This document shows positions 411 to 63,937 of a stretch of DNA of 64,000 bases, piece by piece. The notes beneath the pieces were generated by a model, which searched no databases, was not told the DNA's origin, and saw nothing but the letters and a program-made list of their open reading frames with translations. Each line of letters begins with the position of its first letter. The stretch's first letter is position 1. The stretch comes from a virus (lineage: Duplodnaviria; Caudoviricetes): the IMG/VR virus record IMGVR_UViG_3300020450_001133; one strand, written 5' to 3'. A program made the position numbers and the translations under genes.

Positions 411-604
411 CGTTTTATTATAGAACTCTTTAATTTCTTTTTAGGACCTGGCTTCTTGTGTGCATGTTTTGTCTTTTTAGGCTTTTTAGGTCTTTGGACA
501 ACACGTTGTACATCATTTGCAATTGGTTTTACAACTGTGGCAACTGCACCTGCACTCATGCCTCCTACTGATGCTGTCTCTTGAATTATTTCATGTATCT
601 TCAT
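407..604 (-). CDS. small basic late protein, putative internal head protein (65 aa)
   Basis: Start moved to ATG 604 (MKIHEIIQE), 5 nt after late promoter GATAAATA; TASVGGMSAGAVATV motif; Lys-rich tail. Confidence 0.7.
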   Translation of the reverse strand: MKIHEIIQETASVGGMSAGAVATVVKPIANDVQRVVQRPKKPKKTKHAHKKPGPKKKLKSSIIKR

Positions 605-609
605 GCTAG

Positions 610-617
610 TATTTATC
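610..617 (-). promoter_or_regulatory. T4-type late promoter (GATAAATA), leaderless spacing
   Basis: GATAAATA-ctagc-ATG(604). Confidence 0.7.
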
Positions 618-2520
618 CTTTTTTCTTGCCGGCTTTCATATTTGCACACCAGTGATACATTTTTCCTTTCTCACCACTGTACTTTTTTGCTTTTGCACGA
701 AGACTACTCACTGAGCCTTTACAACTAGCACCTGCTTTTTTTACTCTACCAGGTCTGCTTTTGCCTTTCTTTTTACCGTCAGCAAAGTTTTCATCTACAA
801 TCTCTGCTGGTATTACATCTCTGCCAACACGTTTTGCTTGATACACTCTGTGAAAGCCATCAAGTATTGTTTTGCCATCTTTGTCTATCAGTATCGGGTC
901 GTCTAAATCAACACCTACATCTGGATCAGTATCTATTACTCTGCCAAAACGGTCATCAATTGCTTCGTCATCTAAGTCTGCTACTTTAACTTTAATTAAT
1001 TTTGTCTTTTTGTCTTTAACATAATCTTTTACAGCAGGATTTAGATTTCTTTCATTAACATTCTTATAAACACTATACAACACAGGATTATTACCACAAC
1101 CAAGTTCATCGTTTGCTACACCTCTTATAAGTGCTTTTTGTCCTTGTCTGCTATCAAAGTCTCTATAAACATCTGCATAAACATCATCTATAGAATTATC
1201 GTCATGCCCATCATTACATTCATCTGTAAATCCTTCGTAGTGTACTATGTAATCTCCAACAGTATCTCTACCTACATCTGTGGGTACTAATTTATTTACA
1301 AACTCATCTACTTCTTTTGGTAAAGGCTTTTTATATCTATCTGGATCAAATACAGAACCTTTTGAATGTGCTAATGGATTGTATTCTGCTTTTTTATCAT
1401 GTGCTTTTTTATATTCTTTAGCACCTTGTTTTAAATCATCAAGTGCTTTTTTTAAAACACTTTTCATATCTTCTGTAACTCTTTTCTTTTTAGGCTTTTT
1501 TCTGCATTTCCAAACTTTGTCTGTGCTACAAAAATACTTACCATGTTTACAATTACTAGCATCTTCTGATGTGAGCATTGTTGTAAGTTTATTTTGCAAA
1601 CTGTCCATTACTGCTTGGTCACTAACTTTATGTGAAAAATGTTTCATTAATTCTTCAATGTCAGCATCTACAATAATTGCTTTTACTTTATCTATGCCTA
1701 ATATGTTTGCGGCATCAAATCTATGATGACCATTTACAAGATATCCTTTTTTATCTATTATAAAAGGTCTGTAATCTCCATCAAAGAACATGTTCTCTGC
1801 TCTTTTACTTAATCCATCTACTCTTTGACTTTGTACAGGTTTAATTTTGTCTAATGTAATAGTGCCTTGTTTAAAACTAAATGGTGAATCTTTAATGTCT
1901 CTTTTTCTTATTTGGGGTAATTGATTTCTATTAAAGTGCTTGTCGCTAACATGTCTTTCATATTCTTCTTCTATACCTTGTCTTAGTCTAATAACACCAC
2001 AACCTAATCTATCTCCAGCATTACCTGTTTTAAGACTTTCTTCATCTCCGCCTTTACCTAAATCATCTCTGCCGGCGTGTACAACAACTGCTCTACCAAC
2101 TACACTTCTATCACCACTTAAATCTACACGTCTGGCAACAATTTTAAATCTTGCTTCACCTTGTTCATTTGCTGTGACATTACCTAAATCTCCAACATGC
2201 CCACCATCTATGTCACCATGGTCAACTCCGTCTGGATTATAATGACCACCTGCACTAGCACAGCCATCACTTAAATCGCCAAATTCGTGTATGTGGAATC
2301 CATGTTCGCCTGGCTCTAATCCTTTTATAAGTCCTCTAATTATTGTAGGCTTGCCTGGTTCTTGTTTCATTTTAATGATGCCTTGCACATCACCTTCTGT
2401 ATGCTCAAAATTTACAAGTGCTTTTATAGTTTCTTCTGCTTCATTAAATGTATGCAAAGATTCACATTGGCATTGTGTTTCTCTAGTTCTAGGACATTTG
2501 TTTAAATCATTTGCCCTCAT
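613..2520 (-). CDS. sodC: Cu/Zn superoxide dismutase fused to two ParB/sulfiredoxin-like domains and basic Cys/His modules (635 aa)
   Basis: All SOD1 ligands present: H76,H78,H93,H101,H108,D111,H148, R171, C87/C174 (FHIHEFGD...GGHYNP...GHVGDLGN...VVVH...TGNAGDRLGCGVI); ParB-like NGHHR (aa ~263) and DGFHR (aa ~554). Confidence 0.9.
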   Translation of the reverse strand: MRANDLNKCPRTRETQCQCESLHTFNEAEETIKALVNFEHTEGDVQGIIKMKQEPGKPTIIRGLIKGLEPGEHGFHIHEFGDLSDGCASAGGHYNPDGVDHGDIDGGHVGDLGNVTANEQGEARFKIVARRVDLSGDRSVVGRAVVVHAGRDDLGKGGDEESLKTGNAGDRLGCGVIRLRQGIEEEYERHVSDKHFNRNQLPQIRKRDIKDSPFSFKQGTITLDKIKPVQSQRVDGLSKRAENMFFDGDYRPFIIDKKGYLVNGHHRFDAANILGIDKVKAIIVDADIEELMKHFSHKVSDQAVMDSLQNKLTTMLTSEDASNCKHGKYFCSTDKVWKCRKKPKKKRVTEDMKSVLKKALDDLKQGAKEYKKAHDKKAEYNPLAHSKGSVFDPDRYKKPLPKEVDEFVNKLVPTDVGRDTVGDYIVHYEGFTDECNDGHDDNSIDDVYADVYRDFDSRQGQKALIRGVANDELGCGNNPVLYSVYKNVNERNLNPAVKDYVKDKKTKLIKVKVADLDDEAIDDRFGRVIDTDPDVGVDLDDPILIDKDGKTILDGFHRVYQAKRVGRDVIPAEIVDENFADGKKKGKSRPGRVKKAGASCKGSVSSLRAKAKKYSGEKGKMYHWCANMKAGKKKG

Positions 2521-10055: not shown

Positions 10056-10460
10056 TTATAATAAATCCTGTTTAGTAAATTCCATATTTATGGAACCTGT
10101 AGTATCTATGGTGCCTGCATTAAGCACTACACCATTTAATTCATCTTTAAGTGTGTCTACTGTATGGGCATTAGGAGTTTCTGTAGCAAATTTAAAAATA
10201 AAACCTGCTCCAGTTAATGTAGGTGCACCAAAATTTTCTAATTTGTTTGTACCTACTCCATTTAGTTGTACTGGATTATTCATCACAGTTGGCATTGCCC
10301 TCATTCCTATTACTTGTACAACACTTTCGAAATCTTTTTGACTGTTATCTGCAAAATTTCCAGATGCTGTTATGTCTAAAGTAGTGAACAAAGTAAAAAA
10401 CTCAATGTTACCTGTTAATACTTCTACGGATGCCATTGCTCCGCTTCTTGTTCCCACCAT
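10056..10460 (-). CDS. putative virion structural protein (134 aa), possible paralog of 10569-10901
   Basis: Start moved to 10460: late promoter at 10487-10494 and SD AGGAG lie inside the ORF-track N-terminus. Confidence 0.65.
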   Translation of the reverse strand: MVGTRSGAMASVEVLTGNIEFFTLFTTLDITASGNFADNSQKDFESVVQVIGMRAMPTVMNNPVQLNGVGTNKLENFGAPTLTGAGFIFKFATETPNAHTVDTLKDELNGVVLNAGTIDTTGSINMEFTKQDLL

Positions 10461-10486
10461 ACTGTCTCCTGTGTATGTAATAACTG

Positions 10487-10494
10487 TATTTATC
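10487..10494 (-). promoter_or_regulatory. late promoter GATAAATA with SD leader
   Basis: GATAAATA...CAGGAGACAGT-ATG(10460). Confidence 0.65.
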
Positions 10495-10568: not shown

Positions 10569-10901
10569 TTACACTACTCTGTATTCACCTGCAGTTACCG
10601 TTGCGTTTGCTCCGTTACCTGTAAGCATTGGTTGAATAGCCGCTAGTAATCTAGCCGCGGTAGGTGAACCTTCAACACCAACATGCATTACTGTCGCAGA
10701 AATGCTGTTAATAAGTACTGGAGTACAAATTGTTGATATACCTTGAACAACTAATTCACCTTTTTGAGCCGCTCCACCTGAGAACCCAAATTGGCTAATG
10801 TTGTCAGTACCATCTACTTCATCAATAATGAAGTGACTTAAAGTACCAACCATAAGTTGACTGTTATCAAGAACTGCACCATTCACTCTTGTTTGTGCCA
10901 T
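10569..10901 (-). CDS. putative high-copy virion structural/decoration protein (110 aa)
   Basis: Own late promoter, hairpin leader, SD AGGAGA and own terminator; small Ala/Gly/Val-rich protein. Confidence 0.65.
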   Translation of the reverse strand: MAQTRVNGAVLDNSQLMVGTLSHFIIDEVDGTDNISQFGFSGGAAQKGELVVQGISTICTPVLINSISATVMHVGVEGSPTAARLLAAIQPMLTGNGANATVTAGEYRVV

Positions 10902-10978
10902 GATAGTCTCCTACTGTTTTTTTACATGTTCGTGGTCTCTAAACCACCACCGTTTTAAGAACATGCTTTGGATACAAG

Positions 10979-10986
10979 TATTTATC
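10979..10986 (-). promoter_or_regulatory. late promoter GATAAATA with 77-nt structured leader
   Basis: Motif match; leader contains CATGTTC/GAACATG and GTGGT/ACCAC stems. Confidence 0.65.
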
Positions 10987-11025: not shown

Positions 11026-11622
11026 CTATTTGCCTTTTCTTGTAAAGTTAAAAGATTTTTTAGTTTGAGGTGCTAAATCTCTAATCTTTTTAACTGCACC
11101 AGAAATATCATCTATAGTATCTCTTGTTGCTTTTGCAACTTTGCCAGGACTTTTAAGTTTTCTCAAAGGTCCTATATCTTTGAAACGTTTTGCTATGCCG
11201 ACTTTGTCTTTTTTGGGTTTGGCTTCTGGTTCTACAGTTGTACCATAGTATCTGTCGTGTTTTAGGCTTCTACCAATAGCATCTTTTCTACTTCTAGAAT
11301 CATCATCTGAATCTTTTGTTGATGAAGATTTCATTTTATCAGGGTCAATTCCAGGTGTACTGCGTTTAAATCCAAACTCTGATTTCATTCTATCTTTTAA
11401 TTCTGGATGTAATTCTTCAATAGCCAAATCCACAGCCAAACCTGGTGTCATACTTGGTCCACCTGTTGTGTATAAACCTTTTGCTTTTTGTACTACTCTG
11501 GGTGTGTCTACATTTTCCCAGCCAGGTCTTCTTCTGCCCACAGGTCCAATTTTGTCTTCAATTTCTTGCATGACAATATCGTTTACATTTTGTTCGACTA
11601 TGACTATATCTGCTATTTTCAT
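11026..11622 (-). CDS. basic late hypothetical protein (198 aa), putative internal protein
   Basis: MKIADIVIVE N-terminus; late promoter 5 nt upstream. Confidence 0.7.
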   Translation of the reverse strand: MKIADIVIVEQNVNDIVMQEIEDKIGPVGRRRPGWENVDTPRVVQKAKGLYTTGGPSMTPGLAVDLAIEELHPELKDRMKSEFGFKRSTPGIDPDKMKSSSTKDSDDDSRSRKDAIGRSLKHDRYYGTTVEPEAKPKKDKVGIAKRFKDIGPLRKLKSPGKVAKATRDTIDDISGAVKKIRDLAPQTKKSFNFTRKGK

Positions 11623-11627
11623 GTTAA

Positions 11628-11635
11628 TATTTATC
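11628..11635 (-). promoter_or_regulatory. late promoter GATAAATA, leaderless spacing
   Basis: GATAAATA-ttaac-ATG(11622). Confidence 0.7.
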
Positions 11636-18094: not shown

Positions 18095-18347
18095 CGTGGC
18101 TCTCTTTTATAACTTTTTTTATGCCACGTGAGAATTTTTTAGAATCACCGCTTTTAAGACTGTTTATCATTCTACGTTCTAAGTCTAATGCAGTAGATTC
18201 ATCATACGTTTCTCTTAGAATTTTCTTAACATTTTCAACACCACTAACCAAATGTTCTACTCTATTTTCAAGTACATGATGTTTATTTCTATCAACACTG
18301 ATAGAGTTAAGTTCTTCTAAAATTGTTCTAGTTTTACCTTGTGACAT
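18075..18347 (-). CDS. hypothetical late protein (90 aa)
   Basis: ORF track; late promoter at 18371-18378. Confidence 0.75.
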   Translation of the reverse strand: MSQGKTRTILEELNSISVDRNKHHVLENRVEHLVSGVENVKKILRETYDESTALDLERRMINSLKSGDSKKFSRGIKKVIKESHDVHSNS

Positions 18348-18370
18348 ATAATTTTATTTCCTATTAAGCA

Positions 18371-18378
18371 TATTTATC
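18371..18378 (-). promoter_or_regulatory. late promoter GATAAATA heading the internal-protein cluster
   Basis: Motif 23 nt upstream of ATG 18347 with AGGAAA in the leader. Confidence 0.65.
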
Positions 18379-44457: not shown

Positions 44458-44469
44458 TTTTTATATTTA

Positions 44470-46581: not shown

Positions 46582-47220
46582 TTATGCAGATTCGTTGTCA
46601 GTTGTGCCAGGTACTATTGAACTATCAAATGGGTTACCTGCTTCAACATTAGAAACAATACCACTAGGTCCTTGACTGTGTATAGCATTGTCATATCTAA
46701 TTGTTAGAGAAACAGTAACAGGTTCATTTGTAGCATAGTCTGAGTCACTGTAATCAACGTTAGTTAAGAAACATCCTTCTAAGTTCCAAACTTCCATTGC
46801 GTCTGCAGTACTACCATCTAACACCTCAATTTGCATGTTAAATTTGTAATCTTCACCAGCAATTGGAGAAGTTTGTTCAAAGTGGTTTAATTGTCTTTGA
46901 TTCTGAGCACCAACAAGTCTTGCAACACTATTAGAAATATCATCACGTAATTGTACTGTGATTGGATCCCAAGCATGTTTACCTTGTACATACACTTTTG
47001 AATTGTAAGAATCAATTACAACCTCTTCATAATTAACTTTAGGACGAGTAACGTTCATAACATTTTGTGTGAACCTTCTAGTGGATTGGTCTCCACCAAA
47101 ACCGTCAAGCATACTAACCCTAAATCTGAATTTCAGTTTAGGCATCAAAATACCTTGTTCACCAGCGACTACTGGAACACCAAATTTGTTCTTTGTTTTA
47201 TCAACTGTTGGACTTGCCAT
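46582..47220 (-). CDS. gp19: tail tube protein (gp19-like)
   Basis: Directly downstream of sheath; MPKLKFRFRV, RPKVNYEEV, WDPITVQLRDD, GCFLTNVDYSD, VSLTIRYDNA. Confidence 0.85.
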   Translation of the reverse strand: MASPTVDKTKNKFGVPVVAGEQGILMPKLKFRFRVSMLDGFGGDQSTRRFTQNVMNVTRPKVNYEEVVIDSYNSKVYVQGKHAWDPITVQLRDDISNSVARLVGAQNQRQLNHFEQTSPIAGEDYKFNMQIEVLDGSTADAMEVWNLEGCFLTNVDYSDSDYATNEPVTVSLTIRYDNAIHSQGPSGIVSNVEAGNPFDSSIVPGTTDNESA

Positions 47221-47280
47221 TTCATTATCTCCTAATACCCATAAACCCCTTGATATTGTTTATGGGTTTATCGTTACAGT

Positions 47281-47288
47281 TATTTATC
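47281..47288 (-). promoter_or_regulatory. late promoter for tail tube with hairpin leader and SD
   Basis: GATAAATA; ACCCATAAAC/GTTTATGGGT stem (47237-47267); AGGAG at 47229-47233. Confidence 0.7.
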
Positions 47289-47378: not shown

Positions 47379-50171
47379 TTATGATGTTGAACCCAAAGTG
47401 TTTTGAATTCTAATCGGTATGTAAATAAACTCAACTGCTTTGACTGGCTGTATCGCTATGTCAATGTAAAGTTCATTTCTATCAATTCGAGCCGCTGTAT
47501 TGTTTGTTGCGTCACAAACAGTTACAAAGTCGAATAGACCTCTTTGAATAACTAACTGACTTAAGAATCCATCAACAACGGATTTTGCATTTGCTCTTGT
47601 CAACTCATCGTTTGGTTCAAACAAGAAAGGCTTAACTGCATCGTCAAGTTGCTCTCTTATGTAAACTAACAATCTTGCAACATTAACTCTATCTAATGCA
47701 CTTGAATTTGGATTCAATGTTTTTTGTCCAAATACTGCAAGTCCTCTTCCTGGGAATTGGGCAATAGGGTTAATTTTGTTTGAGTACAATGTGTCTCTCT
47801 GACCTTCGTTTAATGTAACTGCGTTAAATTCGCCGTCGGCCGGATTAACAAATCCTACTGATGTTGCGTTCTGTACAAGACCTCTTTGGAATCCTGCTGG
47901 TGCAAACCAAGGGAAAGCAACCTGGTCATTAAATGCAAATGTTCTTAAAGCAACATGACTTGGCGGAACAACTACGTTAGTTCCATCTAAGTTTGTTGTT
48001 AAAGCACTTGGATAGTAAACTGCGGCATATGGAGAACTTGAAATTAGTCCGTCTTCACCGTTTTCACTAGCATTGTTGGCGTTTGTTGCCCAGTTTTTAG
48101 TGCTTGTTGCGTCTGCTTTAAGTCTAAATGGTGTATCAGCAATAACAAAAGCAGTATTTCTTCTGTCTGTGCTTAATGCTACCATTTCATCTAGCATTTC
48201 AGGGAAACCAGGAGCGGCTATTAAGTTGAATGAATTAGTTTCTGCTCTAATGTCATCATTAGAAACAATAGCGGCTTGCATCTTAGTTTTTACTAAGTTG
48301 TGAACTGCTTTTCTTAATCCAAACATTTTACCGTCCGTTTTGTTACCACTTGCGTCTACCCAAACATTACCAATGTTTGTTGATGCAGGAGTATAGTTAA
48401 TCTTATACTCTTTGACGTTACCTGCTGAAGCACGTTTGTTCCATCCAAGCATACCTGCTGGGTAGGCTGTTTGTGCAGGAGCATCAGCATCTAAACTTGA
48501 AGTTTTAGACTGTCTGAAGTCTGCATAAATGATACCTTCTGAAGTAACTTGGTCTGTACCATCAACTTTAACCCATGCAGTACCACTCCACTTGTAAAGA
48601 CAAGGGAAGTTTTCAGTATCGTCTGAGTCTAACCAAACATCACCTGCCACTAGAGCAGTTCCGTCTGATTGTGTTGTTGGAGCAGAAGCAGATACGTTTA
48701 AGTCTTTAGACAATGTCTGCCATCCTGCTGATGCGTCATTTTCTAAGATGTCTACGTTTGCTTTTGCTACTGTGGCATTAAACCAGTAAGTTCCTTCTGC
48801 AAGAGTACCTGTTATGGAAGTTTTACTTGCTTCGTAACTTAAATCTGCAAAGTTAGAGAATGTAATGTTAGCAGTTGCGGCACCTGAACCAAAACCAATT
48901 GTACTTGGTCCGAAGTCTGAGTGTAAACTATTAACTTGAATATCTCTACCGTCGCTTGATGTTAATACGATGTTATCGCTAGAACCTAGGCTTGCTGAGA
49001 CTTTAGTGATTGAAGCACCTGCTAGTGCTTGGTTAAAGTCAAATACAGCATCTTCCGCCGTTGAGTTAGTTGCGTTACCACTAATAGTGTTACTAAATGG
49101 AACTGTTACTGATGTGCCACCGTACACGATTTGTACGTTTGCGTTACCAGAAACATTAACACCAGCAGAAATATTACTACCTTCTGCTACTACTGTTGAA
49201 TTTCCATTATGTCTTTTTAACACAACTGTTGCTTCTTCTGGATCTACATTATCAAACAATCCTACTAAGTTACCAACACTTACATTTGCAGTACCAATTG
49301 CGGAATAAGCCGCATCAGTATTTGCGTAGAATGGTGCGGCAACTGTTGAGAATGCCTTAGTTGCTGAACTGAAAAGTTTAACTTTAAAGTCTGCACCTTG
49401 GTTAGGTGTGCTTGTTTGAATGAAAATATCTCCAGCGGATAGTGAACTAACACCATCGCTCTTAAGTGCTGGTACTGTTGTATGGCTTGCCCATTGGAAG
49501 TCTCCGCTTGTAGCAGATGCCCAACTTGTGCTACCAATTAGGTACCAGTCGTCACTGAATTTTTCGTAATACTTAACATTTGCGGCTGTTCCACCTGCAT
49601 TTGTATTTGCCACAACGGCATAATCGCCGTTAAGACCAAATGCTCTCTTAGGTCCGCCTGTGCCAGCATCTATATTGATTGCGTCTACAACGGATACGTC
49701 TTTCTTAACCCATGCTGATCCACTATACTCTCTTAGTCCGTAAACTGAAGATGTAAGGTCTAACCAGTAACTTCCATTAGCAATAGCACCTGTTGGTGCG
49801 GCTGAGGAAGCCTCTAATTGACCTAGGTCAATGTCTGCTCTTAGAACAAATGCTCTATTTGCCAGACCTAAGAATGAGTGGGCCGCTAGTAAGCCGTATT
49901 CATTGAGATCATAACCATGCAACTGATTACTACCTGATTTGTAAAATAAAGGATTACCAAACTGTTGTAGTAATTCACGTTGACTTGTAATTAGTTGTAA
50001 TTTTCCTGCGTTAGCCTTAGAAGTAAAAGCCGCCGTGCCTGAACCGTCTGGACTACTCTTATCCTGAGCAGTTGCGACGATTAGTAACGGAACTGTACCA
50101 GCACCAGCCGAGGCGTAAAACGATTCGTCTGATACACTAATACTAACTCCAGGTGATACTAATGTTGCCAT
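47379..50171 (-). CDS. gp18: tail sheath protein (gp18-like, 930 aa)
   Basis: SPGVSISVSDES start; NLIAAPG, FPWFAPAG, KINPI, FGQKT, DRVNVARL, FLFEPND, PVKAVEFIYIPI. Confidence 0.95.
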   Translation of the reverse strand: MATLVSPGVSISVSDESFYASAGAGTVPLLIVATAQDKSSPDGSGTAAFTSKANAGKLQLITSQRELLQQFGNPLFYKSGSNQLHGYDLNEYGLLAAHSFLGLANRAFVLRADIDLGQLEASSAAPTGAIANGSYWLDLTSSVYGLREYSGSAWVKKDVSVVDAINIDAGTGGPKRAFGLNGDYAVVANTNAGGTAANVKYYEKFSDDWYLIGSTSWASATSGDFQWASHTTVPALKSDGVSSLSAGDIFIQTSTPNQGADFKVKLFSSATKAFSTVAAPFYANTDAAYSAIGTANVSVGNLVGLFDNVDPEEATVVLKRHNGNSTVVAEGSNISAGVNVSGNANVQIVYGGTSVTVPFSNTISGNATNSTAEDAVFDFNQALAGASITKVSASLGSSDNIVLTSSDGRDIQVNSLHSDFGPSTIGFGSGAATANITFSNFADLSYEASKTSITGTLAEGTYWFNATVAKANVDILENDASAGWQTLSKDLNVSASAPTTQSDGTALVAGDVWLDSDDTENFPCLYKWSGTAWVKVDGTDQVTSEGIIYADFRQSKTSSLDADAPAQTAYPAGMLGWNKRASAGNVKEYKINYTPASTNIGNVWVDASGNKTDGKMFGLRKAVHNLVKTKMQAAIVSNDDIRAETNSFNLIAAPGFPEMLDEMVALSTDRRNTAFVIADTPFRLKADATSTKNWATNANNASENGEDGLISSSPYAAVYYPSALTTNLDGTNVVVPPSHVALRTFAFNDQVAFPWFAPAGFQRGLVQNATSVGFVNPADGEFNAVTLNEGQRDTLYSNKINPIAQFPGRGLAVFGQKTLNPNSSALDRVNVARLLVYIREQLDDAVKPFLFEPNDELTRANAKSVVDGFLSQLVIQRGLFDFVTVCDATNNTAARIDRNELYIDIAIQPVKAVEFIYIPIRIQNTLGSTS

Positions 50172-50200
50172 AATTAATCTCCTTTGAATTATTATACGAA

Positions 50201-50208
50201 TATTTATC
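50201..50208 (-). promoter_or_regulatory. late promoter for sheath with SD leader
   Basis: GATAAATA, 29-nt leader with AGGAG. Confidence 0.7.
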
Positions 50209-51021: not shown

Positions 51022-51840
51022 TTATCTATATATAAACGGGTCTTCTTCTCTTATTTGATTTATTCTTTCTTTTAATAATCTTTCATCTCTTAAATGATTT
51101 TTATAAACTTCAGTCTTGTCTATTAAAAAGTAAATGAATCCACTTGTAAAACTTTTTTTGTTTAGTTTTTTACGAACATTGTCGCTTGTACTATCTGTAC
51201 TTATACTCGAGGTTACCAGTTGTACATTTTTTTCTGCACATATATCTTTTACTTGTTCTAGTGTAACTGTTTGTTCAAACGGATTATAAAACTGGTCCTT
51301 GAACCAACTTTCCCTTTGTTTTTCATCTTTAATATATTGTGTCATGCCTGTAAATATATCATACCAAGTATGTGTTGGAAATTGGTCAAACCATTCAAAC
51401 ATTGTATCTCTACTTTCTTTGTGATACAATCCTATAAAAGAATATTTGTTTGCACAATCAATTGCTTTACTGATTGTTTGTTTCATTGTGAAATCTGGTA
51501 TGTGATGTAATGCACCAATGCTAACAGTTAAATCTGCTGTTCTATCATTTGTCATTATATCTTGTTCAAAAAAATCTGCTGTAAAAACTTCATCAGAAGT
51601 TTGTTTTGCATAGTCTATATTTCCAGGTACAATGTCTAAACCTGTTACAGATAAACTAGGATAATTTTGTGCAATTCTGTTACTTAACCACCCGTTACCA
51701 CAACCAAGTTCTAAAACATTAGAAATGTCTTTGGTATCTAAAAGTGTTTCTAAAATGGGTAAAGGTAACTCTTCTGAGTTTACTTTTTCTTGGGGAGTGT
51801 TAAATTGTATTTCCGAATAGTATTGTTTTACAAGATCCAT
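51022..51840 (-). CDS. class I SAM-dependent methyltransferase
   Basis: VLELGCGNG, GLD, GALHH; promoter TTGACA-N17-TACATT 5 nt before ATG. Confidence 0.85.
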   Translation of the reverse strand: MDLVKQYYSEIQFNTPQEKVNSEELPLPILETLLDTKDISNVLELGCGNGWLSNRIAQNYPSLSVTGLDIVPGNIDYAKQTSDEVFTADFFEQDIMTNDRTADLTVSIGALHHIPDFTMKQTISKAIDCANKYSFIGLYHKESRDTMFEWFDQFPTHTWYDIFTGMTQYIKDEKQRESWFKDQFYNPFEQTVTLEQVKDICAEKNVQLVTSSISTDSTSDNVRKKLNKKSFTSGFIYFLIDKTEVYKNHLRDERLLKERINQIREEDPFIYR

Positions 51841-51845
51841 AATGT

Positions 51846-51874
51846 AATGTACTATAAATTAATTTGTTTGTCAA
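51846..51874 (-). promoter_or_regulatory. sigma70 promoter, leaderless spacing
   Basis: TTGACA-N17-TACATT-acatt-ATG(51840). Confidence 0.65.
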
Positions 51875-51880: not shown

Positions 51881-52648
51881 TTAACCAATAATGAATCCTA
51901 AAGGTGCATTGCCTTCTTCCATATTGTGTAAACCTGCAATCAATTGTTCCATTTCAGTTAATGCTTCTGATTTGAGAGCATCACCGTTCAATGTTGTAGC
52001 ACCGCCAGGCCCAGGAAGTCCTCCAGGGAATTTGCTTCTTGCTTCACCTAACATCATTTTACTTTGTGCTAGTGCGTATGCACTTAACCATTCAGCGGCA
52101 TAAACATCTTTTATTAAAACACTTTCTGGAATAAAGTTATTAACACCTATTGCAATATCTTCTTCATGATTAACATTTCTTAAAATAGTTAGTTCTTTTG
52201 TATTTCTATTAAATGTAAAGTTGTATTCACTACCAAATATACGACCAATAGTTTCTTTGTATTGTGCAAATGCATCAAATACTGCAAGTCCACCAATTTG
52301 TCCTGCTTGTAGCATATACATATTATTGAATGCAACATCAAATGGATCAAAATTAGTACCGCCACCACTGTTGGTACCAATACCACGTCTATATAATCTT
52401 CTAACGTCTATAACTTCATCAGGTAAAGTATATTTTGTTACACCTGCTTGAGTTTGTATGAATATAACTGCTTCTTCAACACTTCCTGAACTCAACTGCC
52501 TATACTTTTGTATAGATTTATTGATTGCAATATCGTAATGGTCTCTGTCTAATTCAACATCTACCATGCCATCAGCAAGACGTAATTGAATCTCTTCAAT
52601 TATTTCGTTTCTACTGCCATATCCTATCTGGTCTATCTTAGTTGCCAT
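51881..52648 (-). CDS. gp13: neck protein (gp13-like head-tail adaptor)
   Basis: LADGMVDVEL, YTLPDEVIDVRRLYR, LGEARSKF..LPGPGG..TLNG; start moved to MATKI by late promoter at 52654-52661. Confidence 0.8.
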   Translation of the reverse strand: MATKIDQIGYGSRNEIIEEIQLRLADGMVDVELDRDHYDIAINKSIQKYRQLSSGSVEEAVIFIQTQAGVTKYTLPDEVIDVRRLYRRGIGTNSGGGTNFDPFDVAFNNMYMLQAGQIGGLAVFDAFAQYKETIGRIFGSEYNFTFNRNTKELTILRNVNHEEDIAIGVNNFIPESVLIKDVYAAEWLSAYALAQSKMMLGEARSKFPGGLPGPGGATTLNGDALKSEALTEMEQLIAGLHNMEEGNAPLGFIIG

Positions 52649-52705
52649 ACTACTATTTATCACTTTTTGGGTTTTAACCAAAAAATATATGTATGGTTTG
52701 AAGGT

Positions 52706-53957: not shown

Positions 53958-54380
53958 TTACAGTTTTTTGGCTGTTAAACCAATTGTTGCAGATGCTACA
54001 CGATTTTCGCCATCAAATACTTTGCAGTCATAAAAAATATGATTTAATTTACGTCTGGTAAGTTTGGCTTCAAGTCTTAATCTTGTTCCAGGGAATACAG
54101 GAAATCTAAATTTACATTTGTCTACACTTGTTACAAAAGTGACATAGTCCTCATGTTTGAGTTCGCCTTGTTCCTTTCCTGCTAAATGAAGTGCATGGAG
54201 ACCAGCACATTGATTCATACCTTCTATTATGTAAACACCGGGCCAAATTTTTACATGTGGGAAGTGTCCTTCTAATACTGGATGTGCATTATGTACCATA
54301 TATGTTGCTTCAATTTCTTCATCGCTAATAATACGGTGTTCGTCAATTAATGCTATCGGATGTCTGTGTGGTAGTTCCAT
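53958..54380 (-). CDS. fabZ: 3-hydroxyacyl-ACP dehydratase (FabZ/FabA hot-dog fold)
   Basis: LPHRHP, GHFP..KIWPGVYIIEGMNQ, FRFPVFPG. Confidence 0.85.
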   Translation of the reverse strand: MELPHRHPIALIDEHRIISDEEIEATYMVHNAHPVLEGHFPHVKIWPGVYIIEGMNQCAGLHALHLAGKEQGELKHEDYVTFVTSVDKCKFRFPVFPGTRLRLEAKLTRRKLNHIFYDCKVFDGENRVASATIGLTAKKL

Positions 54381-54405
54381 ATATGCTATTTACTTTGCTA
54401 TGGAT

Positions 54406-56217
54406 TTATTTTGTTAAAAGTTTGGTTATGTACCAATTTATTTTTTGTATTTCTATATTGTTAATCTCATCAATAGTTTTTGGATTGTATTCATCAAAGT
54501 CTTCTCGTTTGATGCCATTCATTGTATAAGGCATGCCAAAAGATTTATTAAGCAAATTGTGTGTTAATTTTCCAAATTTTAAAAGTCTATTATTTAAGTT
54601 GCCTGAATATTTCATTGCATCTAGAAGTCCAACACCATTTCTGTTTTTGTATATAAACTCATTTGAAAAAATATCTTTAACTTGTTGAGGTATAGGTTGT
54701 CCATTCATGTAATGGTCTGTAGGCTCATACCCATAGTCTTTCCAATTCCTTTGAAACTCACTGTCTGTTCTTGCATCGTATCCTTCTGGTCTAATACCTA
54801 ATGCTCTCATGTTAGTTCCTATCATTGGGTTTTGGTCTGATACTAAAAAGTTAGCCATTTCTTTTAAACTTTCTTTTGTGTCGCTTGGTAGTCCTGCAAT
54901 AAAGCCACTAGCCATATCAACATCTTTCCAAACATCTGCTTTTAGTTCTCTCATATATTCGAACTGCAACATAGGATTCAAGCCTTTACCTATATCTTTT
55001 GCACTATCAGGATTTGTTGTTTCTACTCCAAACTGAACATGGACTATCCCAGCATCTGCAATCACTTGTGCTTGACTTGGTGTTTTGTTTCTATTTGCAT
55101 ACAATAAATCTAATCTAATATAACAAGCAAACTTTAATTTAAAAGGTAATGATTTAGACATCTCCATAAAGTCAACCATTTTTTGATGGTCATCATTAAA
55201 TGTGTCATCAACAATCCAATAACATTCAACACCAAATTTTTCATAATTATGAATTAACTCTTGTTTAATTAAATCCATATCTCTTATTGCTTCACCTTTT
55301 TCTTTTCCGTTTAAAGCAAAAGAACAAAATTTACATTTAAAAATACAACCTCTACTAACTTCTATAGATAATACTTCGCCTGGATATACTAAGTCATCAT
55401 CATGCCATTTCATTGTTGAATGTTTTACATCTTGTCTGCTTAATACATCTTCTTTGTATGGCATGCCTTCAAAATTTACAGGTAAATCTAAAGGATCTCC
55501 ACCTTTTAGTTCGTTTAAAATTTCAGGTGCTGTTTCTTCTCCGTATCCTATATTAACAATGTCTACGTTTCTATATTTAGAACCTCTATTTGTAAATGCT
55601 CCACCCTTAATAAATTTAACATTAGAATTTTTTTGTTTTACATAATCAACAAACAAATCGTCTATCTCTTCACCGTGCGGTAGAAAGCCTTGATAAAAAT
55701 CTTCTTTAAAAGCATTTTCATCTATGTAATGTTTATTTTTGATTTCAGCACCATAAAACGGATCTAGATTCCAACTAGACGGCTTAATGTTCATTCTATT
55801 TGGAATTTTAAGTAGGAAAGTGTTACTAATACCAACTGCTAAAGTATTGTCTCCTATATATTTGTCTACAATAAGTCTTAATGTTGCTATGTCCAATTGT
55901 GTAACAAAGTCAACTACTTGAACTGTAAATCCACTTTCTCTACATTCGTGGGCAAGTTTATAGGCACCTAATGCTCTATTGCCTACAAAAGAAAATTTAT
56001 CAAACCAACCACGTTGCCATAAATGTTGATTCATTTTAACAGGATCATCTTTTATGTCTTTAAAATGTGAAGAAAGACTTGCCCTGTTATCTAATAGGTA
56101 TGTGCCATAACCTGCGTGTTCATGCATACCCCAAAAAACGTTATCTGTAAATATAACGAATTCAACAGGAGTATGTTCCACTTCAATAAATCTGTGGGGG
56201 TTAATGATACCTTTCAT
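54406..56217 (-). CDS. B12-binding-domain radical SAM enzyme (603 aa)
   Basis: EVSRGCIFKCKFC (CxxxCxxC); N-terminal GAYKLA...VQVVD...VGIS...GG...GYGE cobalamin-domain pattern; DDTF; QFGVET. Confidence 0.85.
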   Translation of the reverse strand: MKGIINPHRFIEVEHTPVEFVIFTDNVFWGMHEHAGYGTYLLDNRASLSSHFKDIKDDPVKMNQHLWQRGWFDKFSFVGNRALGAYKLAHECRESGFTVQVVDFVTQLDIATLRLIVDKYIGDNTLAVGISNTFLLKIPNRMNIKPSSWNLDPFYGAEIKNKHYIDENAFKEDFYQGFLPHGEEIDDLFVDYVKQKNSNVKFIKGGAFTNRGSKYRNVDIVNIGYGEETAPEILNELKGGDPLDLPVNFEGMPYKEDVLSRQDVKHSTMKWHDDDLVYPGEVLSIEVSRGCIFKCKFCSFALNGKEKGEAIRDMDLIKQELIHNYEKFGVECYWIVDDTFNDDHQKMVDFMEMSKSLPFKLKFACYIRLDLLYANRNKTPSQAQVIADAGIVHVQFGVETTNPDSAKDIGKGLNPMLQFEYMRELKADVWKDVDMASGFIAGLPSDTKESLKEMANFLVSDQNPMIGTNMRALGIRPEGYDARTDSEFQRNWKDYGYEPTDHYMNGQPIPQQVKDIFSNEFIYKNRNGVGLLDAMKYSGNLNNRLLKFGKLTHNLLNKSFGMPYTMNGIKREDFDEYNPKTIDEINNIEIQKINWYITKLLTK

Positions 56218-56236
56218 AATGTAGTATTTATTAATT

Positions 56237-57531: not shown

Positions 57532-58144
57532 GTCTAATTGTAAGACCTAATTTAGATTCACAGGTCATTTTGCCTGTTGCATGTATGCTTTTAGCATCGA
57601 ACTTTAACAAACTTCCAGGTTTAAATGGATATGCAGTACCACTTAAACTAAACCATGCTTCTTTGGGTTGATGGCTTAAATGCTCATAAAGATTTTCATC
57701 TATATCTTTTTCAGTTGCATTTAAAATATCATAATCACATGGTCTGCCTAATAATTCTTTGTTTGCTTGAAATCTTGCTGATTTGTTATTAAAAGTCCAT
57801 GTATTGCCACTACTATTCCAGTACTGGTCAAATATTACTAAGTGTGGTTTTGAATCATCTGCTACTTCAAGTGGCATAACAATATTTGTTATTTCTTTAT
57901 CATGATAGTCTGTGTGAGGATATAAAGGTTCTGTGTGTTTGTAAAAATGTGCTGTTGTAATATTTTCAACAGCCACATCTATTAAATTAGCAATAAACTC
58001 AAGATGCTCTGGCAATCTTATACTAATCATATTATTAGGAAGTTTTGCTTTGCTAAAAGGTTCTTTATAAAAGATACTTTTTAAATATTCTATACTGTCT
58101 TTGTCTATTGCGTTTTCTAAGTACACAGGTTCTAGTGTTGTCAT
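57512..58144 (-). CDS. putative 2OG-Fe(II) dioxygenase-like protein (210 aa)
   Basis: PHTD...NIVMPL...FDAKSIHAT...TIR (HxD...H...R); start at MTTLE, 5 nt after TATAAATA (58157-58150). Confidence 0.55.
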   Translation of the reverse strand: MTTLEPVYLENAIDKDSIEYLKSIFYKEPFSKAKLPNNMISIRLPEHLEFIANLIDVAVENITTAHFYKHTEPLYPHTDYHDKEITNIVMPLEVADDSKPHLVIFDQYWNSSGNTWTFNNKSARFQANKELLGRPCDYDILNATEKDIDENLYEHLSHQPKEAWFSLSGTAYPFKPGSLLKFDAKSIHATGKMTCESKLGLTIRLDIPFK

Positions 58145-58188
58145 GCATATATTTATAATCACTACCTGTTGCCCGAATATCCAAAAGT

Positions 58189-58196
58189 GATAAATA
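58189..58196 (+). promoter_or_regulatory. late promoter for gp14-gp15-NUDIX block
   Basis: GATAAATA-ctacatt-ATG(58204). Confidence 0.7.
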
Positions 58197-58203
58197 CTAC
58201 ATT

Positions 58204-59232
58204 ATGCCAAGATTACAACTGTGGAACAAGTTCAAAAAGAATGACTATGACTTCATAGACAGAATAACTGCCGAATTTATTAATGCAGGTGGTACAGGTG
58301 TTTTTGTTCACAAATACATTGGGACATATCAAGATGATACCACTGCTAGTATAGGGTCAGATGAACTTTATATACAAGATGTGCTGTTTTTAGAAAACAG
58401 AGATAGAAAGTATGATACTGATATTTACGAATTAAGGGGTTCATATACACCTGCAGATCCAGATTTTGATTTAACACAATTTGGTTTATTTGTAAACAAT
58501 GATAATATTTTTATGACTTTCCACATGAATACATGTGCAAGTTTACTTGGCAGACGTTTAATGGCAGGTGATGTTGTTGAATTGCCACATCTAAGAGATG
58601 ATTTATTATTAGGTGGTGGTGATGCTGTAAACAGATTCTTTGTTGTAAGTGATTCAGGCAGACCAGCAGAAGGATATGATCCTAGATGGTGGCCTCACTT
58701 ATGGAGAGTCAAACTTACAAACATTACTGATAGTCCAGAATACAGAGATATATTAGGAACAGGCGATACTGCTACTGACCTTAGAAATACATTAAGTACT
58801 TACAGTACTGAACTTGCTATTTCAGATAAGGTTATGGAACTTGCCAATGCTGATGTAAAATATGACACAGGTTACTTTGAAGGTGGACATTTATACATAG
58901 ATGAAAACAGTCAAGATAAACCAGGTGTACATTTTTCAGGCGATGGTACTCCTCCAAATGGTATAAGTATTGTTGGCAGTGGTACAAGTTTCCCTGCAAG
59001 TTGTGAAAACGGAGATTATTTCTTGAGAACAGATTTTGAACCAAACAGATTATTTAAAAAGAACGGATCTAGATGGAGTAAAGTAAGTGACGATACCACT
59101 AGAAAATGGTCAGCCGCAAACAAACTGCTTACAACATTTGTTAATAATAGTAACATTACCACAAACAGTGATGGTACTACACAGGCAGAAAAAACTAATT
59201 TAAGTAAAGCGGTAAAACCAAAGGCAGATTAA
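58204..59232 (+). CDS. gp14: neck/head-closure protein (gp14-like)
   Basis: DVLFLENRDRKY, DLTQFGLF, GDVVELPH; immediately precedes gp15-like gene. Confidence 0.7.
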   Translation: MPRLQLWNKFKKNDYDFIDRITAEFINAGGTGVFVHKYIGTYQDDTTASIGSDELYIQDVLFLENRDRKYDTDIYELRGSYTPADPDFDLTQFGLFVNNDNIFMTFHMNTCASLLGRRLMAGDVVELPHLRDDLLLGGGDAVNRFFVVSDSGRPAEGYDPRWWPHLWRVKLTNITDSPEYRDILGTGDTATDLRNTLSTYSTELAISDKVMELANADVKYDTGYFEGGHLYIDENSQDKPGVHFSGDGTPPNGISIVGSGTSFPASCENGDYFLRTDFEPNRLFKKNGSRWSKVSDDTTRKWSAANKLLTTFVNNSNITTNSDGTTQAEKTNLSKAVKPKAD

Positions 59233-59233
59233 T

Positions 59234-60649: not shown

Positions 60650-61122
60650 GTATTTTAGATAAAATAAATCCTTTAACAAATCTAAGAAAGCACAAAGGCG
60701 TTACCGGTGCAGGTGTATTATTTTTAGCACTAGACACAGGCAGATGCTTATTCCAATTAAGAAACAGTGATAAACGTCATAAAAACACTTGGGGTTTTTG
60801 GGGAGGCATGTTAGAAGGTAACGAAACTCCATATGAATGTATTCAACGTGAACTAGATGAAGAAATAGGTTTTGTACCAGAACTTAAAAAATTAAATCCA
60901 ATAGACACATACCAAAGTAAAGATAAAAACTTTATGTATTACAGTTTTGTGTATGTAATAGACAAAGAATTTATTCCAAAACTTAACGGAGAAACTTGTG
61001 GTTATGCTTGGGTAGACATAGGCAAGTGGCCCAAACCATTGCATGACGGAGCAAGAAGCACATTAGGAAGAAATAAAGGTGTAGGTAAACTGCACACTAT
61101 TTTACAAATCAATTCTAAATAA
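60577..61122 (+). CDS. NUDIX hydrolase (start uncertain)
   Basis: Nudix box GGMLEGNETPYECIQRELDEEIG; AGVLF and WGFWGG. Confidence 0.88.
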   Translation: MGKQYMDKHLRRSVQSRVLETQHISILDKINPLTNLRKHKGVTGAGVLFLALDTGRCLFQLRNSDKRHKNTWGFWGGMLEGNETPYECIQRELDEEIGFVPELKKLNPIDTYQSKDKNFMYYSFVYVIDKEFIPKLNGETCGYAWVDIGKWPKPLHDGARSTLGRNKGVGKLHTILQINSK

Positions 61123-61130
61123 ATACTAGC

Positions 61131-61760
61131 ATGTCAAAAGATATTATAAATTTTGATGCTATTCGTTTGACGACTGAACTAAACAAATATCAGCGACATA
61201 AGGAAATACCTAATAGTTTTTTAGACGGCACATTCACAATACTAGATGTAAAAGAAATTTTACCCACACTAAACAGAAAACACCAAATTATTGCTAACAA
61301 ACTTATTAAACAATATGACGTAGATGTCAAACAAAGTAAAGATGGTTTACTTAAAGTTTTCTTAAACGAATACAGGTCATTCTTAAACAACCAACAAACA
61401 AGAAATGAACGTTGGGTGTTTCCTAACGTCATGAAAAAATATCGTTACAATATTAATCCTGTTAGAGCATTAACATATGATGTTAGAGAAATGGCTTACT
61501 CATTTAATCCAGATAATGACCATCATATTTGGCTACAAGAATTAGTAACAGATCCAAATTTCTATCACAGAATAATTCAAGACATAATTAAAGATAGAAA
61601 AAAAGTTGATAAAATTATTAACTATTATGTTCCTTTATTTAATACTGCTAATATTAATTTTGAAGAGCCACTAGAAATGAAACATCTAAGGACTTTAAGA
61701 ACAGATTTATTAGAGTATGCAAACTTGTTTACACAATTCAGAAAATACTACCCAGAGTAA
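61131..61760 (+). CDS. late hypothetical protein (209 aa)
   Basis: AATAAATA-ctagc-ATG. Confidence 0.75.
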   Translation: MSKDIINFDAIRLTTELNKYQRHKEIPNSFLDGTFTILDVKEILPTLNRKHQIIANKLIKQYDVDVKQSKDGLLKVFLNEYRSFLNNQQTRNERWVFPNVMKKYRYNINPVRALTYDVREMAYSFNPDNDHHIWLQELVTDPNFYHRIIQDIIKDRKKVDKIINYYVPLFNTANINFEEPLEMKHLRTLRTDLLEYANLFTQFRKYYPE

Positions 61761-61812
61761 AAGTTATAAACAAATAACTTGAATATAACTTTTTTGTATA
61801 TAAATATCTTTC

Positions 61813-62046
61813 ATGACACAACCAAAACATGTAAAAGAATATTACAACAATATAACATATCCTGAATATACCGAAGAAGATAAAAAACGTGGTATGAACA
61901 ACAAAGACTTAGATTTCATGACTGACGGAAACAACGGCATGTACTATTCTGTTTTCCTTCCATCGTTAATGGCAATTGGTATGGGTATTCTTCCTTTTAT
62001 AGTGATGTTTATATTTTTTGAAAAGCCAGAGTTTTTAAAACCGTAA
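61813..62046 (+). CDS. small membrane protein (77 aa)
   Basis: TATAAATA 6 nt upstream; hydrophobic VFLPSLMAIGMGILPFIVMFIFF. Confidence 0.7.
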   Translation: MTQPKHVKEYYNNITYPEYTEEDKKRGMNNKDLDFMTDGNNGMYYSVFLPSLMAIGMGILPFIVMFIFFEKPEFLKP

Positions 62047-63924
62047 TTACTTGTAAAGTAATCTTTTAGCAGATTCGCCGTTTATTAATGGTGCATATAT
62101 TTTAATTGGATCTTCTTTTCCTTTAACAGTTACCGAGCCTAAGTTTTCATAAACTTGTCCAGTATCTCTAAAACTGTTTAAAGTAAATTCACTATACAAT
62201 ATAGGAGTGTCTTGTTTTCTAGTTTCTGCTTCTAATCTAGCCGCTAAATTTACAGCATCGCCTATAACACTATAATCTAATCTACTTTCACTGCCCATAT
62301 TACCAACAATGCATGTGCCTGTGTTTATTCCTGTGCCAAATTTTACTCTAGGTAGTCCTAGTTTTTCCATTTCTTTTTCTAGTTCATCACCTAACAATTC
62401 AATTTCTATTGCACTTTTAAGAGCCATGTCAGCATGATTATCACAAGGTATTGGAGCATTCCAAAATGCCATTATACAGTCGCCCATATACTTGTCGATT
62501 GTTCCACCATTGGCAAGTATAATTTTTGTCATTCTATCTAAGAAACTGTTAATTAATTCTACTAGTCCTTCGGGGTCATCTTGCTTCATGAACTTTTCTG
62601 ATATAGGTGTAAAGCCTACAATGTCTGCAAATAGGAAACTCATTTCTCTTCTTTCGCCACCTAACTTCATTAAACTTGGATCTTTTACTAACATATCAAC
62701 ATAGTCTGGTGATATGTACTTGCTAAATTGTCCTTTTATTTGCTGTCTTAGTCTATATTGCTTGTAAAAATTGTTAAATGCACTATGAGTAAACACCAAA
62801 AATCCACTCAAAACTGGAAAAGTTGCATCAATTAACATCAATTTATTGGTGTAAAACCACACACTTGCATAGGCTTCTGTACCCAAAATCAGCATGGAAA
62901 TTGGTGCTGTCCACACTAAAGGTAACTTATAAACAGCAAAACCTATCAAAACCATGCCCATAAAAGCAACTAGAAGCTCTATAAAGGGCGATAATTCATT
63001 TCGTGTTATGTTACTACCATCTACAAAGTTTTGTAGCATATGGCCCTGTATTTGCTGTGGATACATATTGCCTTTTGGAGTAGGAACAGGATTTTGTATG
63101 CCTTCTGCACTAACTCCTACTATAACAAATTTACCTTTTAGGTCTGGTAGGCTGTTTATGTCCACATATTCTACTTCTTCAAATGTATTATTAAATCTTA
63201 TAAATGCTGTTCCATCAGTTTGTGTAACAATAGGTTCAAAAGGTGGAACTGCAAATTCTTGTATTCCTAGTTCAGATGTTTTTAACATATAACTTGGCTT
63301 TTGTGTATATGTTCTAAGAAGTTCAATAGCAAGACTTGGGTAAATTTTACCCTCAACTCCTATTGCTAATGGATAAGTTCTTGTGACTAAATCAGGTTGT
63401 GGTGCTGATGCAAGTACACCTATGCCTTCTGCATGTTCTTCAAGTGTCGGAATGTTTGTTACTAGGTTGGGCCAACTTAATAGGAAGTCCTGTGCTGGTA
63501 AAGGGCCTATCGTCCCTGTGCCAATGTGCGGACCTGTACTCCTTACTCCTTTGGTACTTGGGGTCTGGGATAAAATCACTCCGTTCCCTTTTATCCAACT
63601 CGCTAGGACTTCGTCCCCTCCGAAACGATCCGCCTCCGGAAACATCACGGTCAATCCAATCATACCACCATTGTTCTGTCTGATATCGTGGATTAGTTGT
63701 GCAAAATTCTGTCTGGGCCATGGCCATTGTCCCCATTGTTGTAAACTTTTTTCACCTATGTTTATTATTACAACTTCATCACTTTGTTTTACTTCATCTA
63801 AGTTTTGTAATGCATCAAAGGTTTGTAATCTTAAACTTTGTAGTGGCGTTGGGTCAAATATTTTTATTGTTGTTAGTAAACATATTGTTACCACAACTGC
63901 CCATCCACTGTAAAACCATTTCAT
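62047..63924 (-). CDS. membrane class III adenylate cyclase with CHASE2 sensor domain (625 aa)
   Basis: N-terminal TM, CHASE2 (GQWPWPR), three TM helices, FADIVGFT, DKYMGD, GDAVNLAARLE. Confidence 0.92.
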   Translation of the reverse strand: MKWFYSGWAVVVTICLLTTIKIFDPTPLQSLRLQTFDALQNLDEVKQSDEVVIINIGEKSLQQWGQWPWPRQNFAQLIHDIRQNNGGMIGLTVMFPEADRFGGDEVLASWIKGNGVILSQTPSTKGVRSTGPHIGTGTIGPLPAQDFLLSWPNLVTNIPTLEEHAEGIGVLASAPQPDLVTRTYPLAIGVEGKIYPSLAIELLRTYTQKPSYMLKTSELGIQEFAVPPFEPIVTQTDGTAFIRFNNTFEEVEYVDINSLPDLKGKFVIVGVSAEGIQNPVPTPKGNMYPQQIQGHMLQNFVDGSNITRNELSPFIELLVAFMGMVLIGFAVYKLPLVWTAPISMLILGTEAYASVWFYTNKLMLIDATFPVLSGFLVFTHSAFNNFYKQYRLRQQIKGQFSKYISPDYVDMLVKDPSLMKLGGERREMSFLFADIVGFTPISEKFMKQDDPEGLVELINSFLDRMTKIILANGGTIDKYMGDCIMAFWNAPIPCDNHADMALKSAIEIELLGDELEKEMEKLGLPRVKFGTGINTGTCIVGNMGSESRLDYSVIGDAVNLAARLEAETRKQDTPILYSEFTLNSFRDTGQVYENLGSVTVKGKEDPIKIYAPLINGESAKRLLYK

Positions 63925-63929
63925 GTATG

Positions 63930-63937
63930 TATTTATT
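63930..63937 (-). promoter_or_regulatory. late promoter for adenylate cyclase, leaderless spacing
   Basis: AATAAATA-catac-ATG(63924). Confidence 0.65.

Follow-up and report, generated by a model that had tools for sequence, protein, structure and literature searches.

We wondered whether a phage late promoter can lie so close to a start codon that the message begins with, or almost with, its own AUG. The question is raised by 64 kb of DNA from an uncultured marine giant myophage (IMG/VR record IMGVR_UViG_3300020450_001133; 64,000 nucleotides [nt], referred to as the window), in which boxes of the type (N)ATAAATA lie only 5 to 8 nt before the ATG of 16 genes, about 25% of the genes present. 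We conclude from the arrangement that these are probably late promoters fused to start codons, whose messages are predicted to begin at or near the AUG. The window has a G+C content of 35%, is 96.4% coding, and carries its genes mostly on the minus strand. A megablast search of cultured phages with the window returned no DNA-level match, and the placement of the phage rests on protein matches of its large terminase (TerL), which shares 56% identity with its counterpart in Pseudomonas phage PA5oct and 43 to 50% with those in Atu_ph07 and the Rak2-like phage CBB (43% for CBB). In IMG/VR, at least 80 related contigs were found, with TerL identities ranging from 96% down to 56%. The comparisons below also draw on a 340-kb relative that is 91% complete (G001) and on a 54-kb near-identical fragment (G004).

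All 16 boxes that an initial annotation had listed at this distance are present, and each ATG opens a real open reading frame (ORF). The spacer is exactly 5 nt long (N5) at nine sites, as had been noted, and it measures 6 nt (N6) at four, 7 nt (N7) at two, and 8 nt (N8) at one (Table 1). The box, (N)ATAAATA/GTAAATA, is invariant across the 16 sites; the positions upstream of it show no conservation apart from a weak G preceding the box, and there is no −35 element. Likewise borne out is the lack of a Shine-Dalgarno (SD) sequence at these starts, an SD-like run being found in none of the 16 spacers, and the start codon is ATG in every case. Three of the ATGs (604, 52648, and 58144) are internal to longer GTG/TTG frames and are nevertheless plausible starts. 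Within the window, ATAAATA-N5-8-ATG occurs 15 times against 2.7 expected, a count reached in 0 of 100 shuffles, whereas the bare ATAAATA 7-mer is not enriched (28 copies, 31 expected); the full T4 octamer TATAAATA has only four copies. Since the 7-mer is not enriched and 25 of its 28 copies fall within the noncoding 3.6% of the window, on the strand of the next gene, the signal is one of position and not of abundance. Late boxes, fused or more distant, precede the genes for TerL, sheath, tube, adaptor, and several virion structural proteins, and they also precede metabolic genes. The metabolic members proposed earlier held up for the radical SAM, FabA-like, and CHASE2-cyclase proteins, but not for the diiron (AurF) match, which lies under the Pfam cutoff.

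A spacing histogram across related genomes had been suggested in the initial annotation as a check on this layout, and for it we counted ATAAATA-N(d)-ATG sites whose ATG opens an ORF of at least 60 amino acids (aa). The window has 9, 3, 2, and 1 sites at d = 5, 6, 7, and 8, none at 9 to 21, and a second mode at 22 to 30; in G001, the corresponding counts are 17, 6, 1, and 2, with almost none at 9 to 15 and a broad hump at 16 to 32. The distance between box and ATG is thus bimodal, being either 5 to 8 nt without an SD or at least 17 nt with one. T4 differs in having its boxes 12 to 36 nt from the ATG (mode, 28) and never at 5 to 8, compared with 15 of 28 boxes at 5 to 8 nt here. CBB differs in the same way, its spacings of 14 to 49 nt always leaving room for a leader, with no site at 5 to 8 nt. 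PA5oct has two sites in the short range, both at d = 5, and mostly spacings of 16 to 32. With the shorter motif TAAATA, eight sites at d = 5 were found in G004, and 12 TAAATA-N5-ATG sites open ORFs in the cultured SAR11 myophage HTVC008M (NC_020484), whereas in the cyanophages Syn9 and S-PM2 N5 sites stay at control level and form no peak. Among 80 IMG/VR relatives, moreover, no identity band is without the N5 peak. The histogram therefore shows the peak in G001, G004, the IMG/VR relatives, and HTVC008M, and not in T4, CBB, Syn9, or S-PM2.

The layout is conserved between orthologues. Among 30 distinct regions upstream of TerL, 25 keep (A/C/G)TAAATA with a 5- to 6-nt spacing while the flanks and the spacer sequence have diverged, and four carry an AGGA SD in place of the box layout. 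The gene for the 166-aa protein (43232) has N5 in 25 of 38 distinct orthologous upstream regions, and the N8 spacing of the 211-aa gene (42100) is kept in 8 of 10 relatives' upstream regions. Gene 42054, in turn, always has a box, 21 to 24 nt, and an SD among the relatives, and the ssb, uvsX, and tube genes are SD-led in all relatives' regions. Some lineages swap the fused layout for an SD, or for a box with leader and SD. In particular, the 557-aa virion gene (38913) has N5 in 10 orthologous regions and a box followed by 17 to 24 nt and an SD in 13; given this switching, either architecture can serve one and the same gene, and the two are interconvertible alternatives.

Where transcription would start can be read from T4, in which the first T of the late box TATAAATA lies at −13 (PMC2988020) and the pockets of gp55 in the cryo-electron microscopy structure hold bases −12, −9, and −8 (PMC7892883). 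With the box thus spanning −13 to −6, +1 is the sixth nucleotide past the box, which at N5 is the A of the ATG; the earlier proposal of a T4-type late −10 box with initiation a few nucleotides downstream is in keeping with this predicted position. Bacterial RNA polymerase prefers a pyrimidine at −1 and a purine at +1. At 47 of 48 distinct N5 sites, the −1 base is C or T, compared with 125 of 262 SD-led starts, a pattern-defined set that includes some false starts (Fisher P ~1e-12). The codon that follows NTAAATA-N5 at ORF-opening sites is ATG in 47 cases, GTG in 2, and TTG in 1, as would be expected if a 5′-terminal AUG were needed. The leadered promoters serve as an internal control, since no ATG constrains their sequence at this point: in those of this clade, the sixth base past the box is a purine in 69%, and a pyrimidine-purine step is found at positions 5 and 6 in 58%, against 20 to 36% at neighboring positions. 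The purine at position 6 is also found in T4 (79%), PA5oct (81%), and CBB (74%), and 7 of 10 leadered boxes in the window have T-A at positions 5 and 6. In addition, the N5/N6 class is less structured over the first 20 nt (P = 0.003) and the first 45 nt (P = 0.001). The window further contains three back-to-back divergent pairs of late promoters with gaps of 45 to 59 bp (22454 to 22507, 42055 to 42099, and 58145 to 58203), and because of these short gaps the transcripts cannot start further upstream unless they do so inside the opposing gene. Two of the pairs mix the classes, with one leadered arm (22453, 23 nt and no clear SD; 42054, 22 nt and AGGAG) and one fused arm. Separately, when N5 sites of the window, G001, G004, and HTVC008M are pooled, their 5-nt spacers have a consensus of about G/C-T-A-G-Y (e.g., gtagc, gtagt, and ctagc), and the spacer ctacatt occurs at two unrelated N7 genes, 56217 and 58204. 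Such nonrandom spacers suggest extra, discriminator-like constraints.

T4 late transcription depends on gp55 as its sigma factor, on gp33 as coactivator, and on the gp45 clamp (PMC2988020, PMC7892883). The initial annotation had suggested locating gp55 and gp33 outside the window, and it is in relatives of the phage that gp55 was located. G001 encodes a gp55-like protein of 276 aa (L096:9181-10008, minus strand) that matches phrog_12791, “sigma factor for late transcription” (E = 1e-91), and, as a second match, the T4 gp55 family phrog_234 (E = 7e-23); G003, HTVC008M, and PA5oct encode a gp55-family sigma as well. These homologues were reached by bridging through the PA5oct homologue and PHROG families, T4 gp55 as a direct tblastn query having given no match in G001 or the window. 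Going by the gene order in G001, the copy belonging to the window genome would presumably lie about 38 kb past the window end.

In the reading that we favor, (N)ATAAATA would serve T4-type late promoters as their −10-like box and would be recognized by host RNA polymerase together with a phage gp55-family sigma. With the sixth base past the box falling on the A of the ATG or 1 to 3 nt before it in the 16 window genes, the late mRNAs would have their AUG at the very 5′ end or behind a leader no longer than 3 nt, and translation would proceed without an SD, through direct recognition of the 5′-terminal AUG. A second promoter class, placed at least 17 nt upstream, would supply a leader with AGGAG. 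The empty zone at 9 to 16 nt would then correspond to leaders (~4 to 10 nt) that are too long for 5′-AUG recognition and too short for an SD and its spacer. Because some host-type TTGACA/TATAAT promoters are fused to ATGs likewise, leaderless expression may be a general habit of the phage and not solely a late device.

Several observations weigh against late promoters fused to start codons. No gp55 homologue was found within the 64-kb window. A search for the Pfam family gp45-slide_C gave a match in HTVC008M only and none in G001, G003, or PA5oct, which sets the jumbo relatives apart from T4; the authors of the CBB study found neither the gp45 clamp nor gp33 (PMC5259590). Because of this missing clamp match, the full T4 activation mechanism may not apply to the jumbo clade. 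Moreover, most fused boxes lie directly behind a same-strand upstream gene without a terminator, so that read-through polycistronic RNAs must exist and could feed reinitiation, and the N7 and N8 sites predict a leader of 2 to 3 nt instead of a true 5′ AUG. Finally, the false starts in the SD-led comparison sets have to be borne in mind for the −1 signature.

The layout may also be taken as real without being a device for setting protein amounts: membership in the two classes would drift by neutral turnover, and the trait would be linked to a host that translates leaderless mRNA well, in place of the two-tier regulon that the initial annotation had envisaged. We regard this alternative as a serious one, though falling somewhat short of an even chance. 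Genes do change class between relatives, host-type promoters are fused too, and in G001 the portal and UDP-glucose dehydrogenase genes are leadered with an SD while a tube-like protein is leaderless-spaced. The distribution of the layout fits as well, since it is common to two distant lineages, the PA5oct-like jumbo clade and HTVC008M, and absent from cultured relatives on Pseudomonas, enterobacteria, and cyanobacteria. Against drift, the class of several genes is stable across wide divergence, and capsid, sheath, and tube, the three most abundant virion proteins checked, are SD-led wherever examined (the major capsid protein in G001, G004, and HTVC008M). TerL, the adaptor, and the radical SAM, FabA-like, and CHASE2-cyclase proteins are leaderless-spaced. 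The claim that leader type sets stoichiometry thus survives as a tendency but fails as a rule, given that the portal gene is SD-led too and genes switch class.

A less probable alternative accepts the boxes as real late promoters and has the fused genes translated mainly from read-through mRNAs, by termination-reinitiation or coupling over a stop-to-ATG distance of about 12 nt, with the tight spacing as a by-product of genome compaction, which would press promoters meant for downstream genes into the smallest of gaps. It draws on the density of the window, which has only one strong terminator between 36.5 and 56.4 kb, and on the boxes at 604, 11622, 38913, and 44457, which adjoin or overlap the upstream stop codon. 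We consider it unlikely, however, since compaction predicts neither the sharp 5-nt mode with its empty zones at 0 to 4 and 9 to 15 nor the near-invariant −1 pyrimidine and near-exclusive ATG starts. The divergent genes 22508, 42100, 58144, and 58204 have no upstream same-strand cistron to which they could be coupled, and T4, CBB, and PA5oct are equally compact yet lack the N5 mode. Least probable by far is that the A/U-rich box at −12 to −6, which does occupy the usual SD location, is a translation element and not a promoter (an S1/enhancer site, or a Kozak-like A-rich context as in Bacteroidota), for the same 7-mer also stands 17 to 77 nt upstream of other late genes and is there followed by a canonical AGGAG, the wide use of AGGAG by the phage means that its host reads SD sequences, the pyrimidine-purine step at positions 5 and 6 is present without a nearby ATG and likewise in T4, whose box has been proven to be a promoter, and general A-richness leaves the invariant Ts at fixed positions unexplained.

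It is tempting to speculate on a use for late promoters fused to start codons. The initial annotation had suggested that leaderless mRNAs could keep being translated under anti-SD or rRNA-cleaving stress, and this found no support. A link between the layout and a phage-encoded ribosomal protein bS21 was rejected: the gene is found in G001 (145827-145979) and HTVC008M (91237-91392), but also in PA5oct (170985-171143), which is nearly without an N5 peak. Conceivably, if rather improbably, the fused promoters form a separate SD-independent and host-linked translation channel, which would keep low-copy late proteins in production at times when capsid, sheath, and tube mRNAs saturate SD-dependent translation or when that translation is deliberately altered. 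If true, such a channel would add a new level to the control of gene dosage and takeover by phages, and it might serve as a signature for predicting the hosts of uncultured marine phages.

The building blocks of the proposed arrangement, gp55-type promoters and leaderless initiation, are already known. The lambda cI message made from PRM is a leaderless phage repressor message. With T4 late promoters, the boxes described here share the −10-like box with its first base free, the absence of a −35 element, the sixth-base purine, the position in front of virion and packaging genes, and a gp55-family sigma in relatives. ATAAATA has been described as a putative late promoter in the Rak2-like jumbo phages CBB and GAP32, which have an annotated gp55-like sigma and carry the motif in front of structural genes (PMC5259590); the 7-mer is the same, and the phages are related. 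Leaderless genes with a −10 element at a short, fixed distance before the ORF have been reported in Deinococcus deserti (PMC4007540), in mycobacteria (PMC4633059), and as the leaderless classes of GeneMarkS-2 (PMC6028130). Deinococcus, mycobacteria, and lambda cI have in common with the window a −10 box, a short discriminator, an AUG as the predicted +1, no SD, and a preference for ATG. In those systems, however, the promoters belong to the housekeeping sigma in cells or to a single phage repressor gene, whereas here a phage late sigma class would be involved, at a quarter of the genes and alongside SD-led genes. HTVC008M has the sharp N5 peak in common with the window, together with gp55-family and gp45-family genes and an SD-led capsid gene of its own, but it is a 147-kb Kyanoviridae-type phage that is distant from this PA5oct-like jumbo clade. 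Papers on AR9 and phiKZ report long leaders or no leaderless transcripts, and in our search of the literature on T4-like, jumbo, cyano-, and pelagiphages we met with no account of late promoters fused to start codons. Provided that the predicted 5′ ends are confirmed, a large share of late genes and some early ones would be expressed from leaderless mRNAs here, a first for a T4-type phage group, with one 15-nt element setting both promoter choice and translation initiation. With this layout, gene starts and late transcription units could also be called by a simple rule in thousands of contigs from uncultured marine phages, and the layout suggests that the hosts, possibly SAR11-like, translate 5′-AUG mRNAs efficiently. 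A cultured system for a direct test exists in HTVC008M on Pelagibacter ubique.

The leadered late units and the host-type promoters are listed with the fused sites in Table 1. The SD-led late class with AGGAG was found as the initial annotation had it, except that the 22 to 77 nt given there as leader lengths are box-to-ATG spacers, the predicted leaders being about 5 nt shorter. The strong intrinsic terminator in front of the tube unit (minus strand), the only one in its 20-kb surroundings noted above, lies between the end of the sheath gene and the tube promoter.

Table 1. Promoter-like elements in the window: late boxes fused to start codons, late boxes with a leader, and sigma70-type promoters with short spacing
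Element	Position	Strand	ATG	Gene product	Context
ATAAATA-N5-ATG	602..616	-	604	65-aa ORF	TAA of box is stop codon of upstream 635-aa gene
ATAAATA-N5-ATG	11620..11634	-	11622	198-aa protein, no function assigned	Box directly after upstream stop codon
TATAAATA-N6-ATG	22495..22510	+	22508	123 aa (phrog_11637)	Divergent from leadered promoter 22477-22483, 54-bp gap
ATAAATA-N5-ATG	38911..38925	-	38913	557-aa virion structural protein	
ATAAATA-N5-ATG	40519..40533	-	40521	Large terminase	
ATAAATA-N8-ATG	42085..42102	+	42100	211 aa	Back to back with leadered promoter of 42054, 45-bp gap
ATAAATA-N5-ATG	43230..43244	-	43232	166 aa (phrog_16202)	
ATAAATA-N6-ATG	44455..44470	-	44457	356 aa, weak AurF/diiron-like match	
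ATAAATA-N5-ATG	52646..52660	-	52648	255-aa head-tail adaptor-like protein (phrog_211)	
GTAAATA-N6-ATG	54378..54393	-	54380	140-aa FabA/FabZ-like dehydratase	
ATAAATA-N7-ATG	56215..56231	-	56217	603-aa radical SAM protein	Box 5 nt past tRNA-Arg gene
TATAAATA-N5-ATG	58142..58156	-	58144	210 aa	Divergent pair with 58204, 59-bp gap
ATAAATA-N7-ATG	58190..58206	+	58204	342-aa virion structural protein (phrog_11591)	Divergent pair with 58144
ATAAATA-N5-ATG	61119..61133	+	61131	209 aa, no function assigned	
TATAAATA-N6-ATG	61800..61815	+	61813	77 aa	
ATAAATA-N5-ATG	63922..63936	-	63924	625-aa CHASE2 + adenylate/guanylate cyclase protein	
ATAAATA + 29-nt spacer with AGGAG	50169..50207	-	50171	Tail sheath	T-A at box positions 5 and 6
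ATAAATA + 60-nt spacer with AGGAG	47218..47287	-	47220	Tail tube	Strong terminator 47333-47360 precedes
ATAAATA + 22 nt with AGGAG	42052..42083	-	42054	236-aa virion protein	
GATAAATA + 26 nt with AGGAG	10458..10493	-	10460	134 aa	
ATAAATA + 77 nt with AGGAG	10899..10985	-	10901	110 aa	
ATAAATA + 23 nt with AGGA	18345..18377	-	18347	90 aa	
Late box + 23 nt, no clear SD	22451..22483	-	22453	270-aa virion structural protein	
TTGACA-18-TATAAT + 5 nt + ATG	29999..30036	-	30001	485-aa DNA helicase	
TTGACA-17-TACATT + 5 nt + ATG	51838..51874	-	51840	272-aa methyltransferase-like	
TTGACT-17-TATAAT + 8 nt + ATG	21601..21640	-	21603	325-aa primase	Leaderless or near-leaderless spacing

The three sigma70-type promoters for which leaderless spacing had been claimed (21603, 30001, and 51840) do have it, and G001 contains six cases of TTGACx-17-TATAAT-N5/6-ATG, all six with a pyrimidine at −1. 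Because a generic sigma70 consensus scan of the window was not enriched over shuffles (68 versus 75 matches), near-consensus intergenic matches alone were used for host-type promoters. A fourth fused candidate, at 32955, was rejected, as the start of the longest ORF had been miscalled there; the real ATG, at 32925 (minus strand), lies behind GGGAG in the order TTGACT-16-TATAAT, a leader of about 25 nt, GGGAG, and ATG, and a PHROG alignment starting at residue 15 agrees with it.

Some further features of the window were observed in passing. Its replication genes encode helicases, a primase, a single-stranded DNA-binding protein, a UvsX-like recombinase, and a thymidylate synthase, and its virion and packaging genes encode TerL, sheath, tube, head closure, and adaptor proteins. 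A search of Rfam at gathering thresholds identified three tRNAs and nothing else. At 31795-31895 (minus strand), an ATAAATA box (31889-31895) stands ahead of some 85 nt of GC-rich sequence that contains no ORF and has a 10-bp GC hairpin and a T-run at its end; the sigma70-type promoter of gene 31728 comes directly afterwards. The stretch has a fold z-score of −4.1 and no Rfam match, and by its layout it looks like a small late-transcribed RNA. Late antisense transcripts of early genes are known at some T4 loci, and an intergenic GATAAATA box at 50269-50275 (plus strand), which faces antisense into the dNMP kinase gene (50309-51013, minus strand), may drive a late antisense transcript of this early gene. 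In the 635-aa protein at 613-2520 (minus strand), a superoxide-dismutase-like N-terminal region occurs together with a ParB-like nuclease/partition domain. The 625-aa cyclase at 62047-63924 (minus strand) joins a CHASE2 sensor to adenylate/guanylate cyclase domains, and its counterpart in G001, of the same PHROG, has 690 aa.

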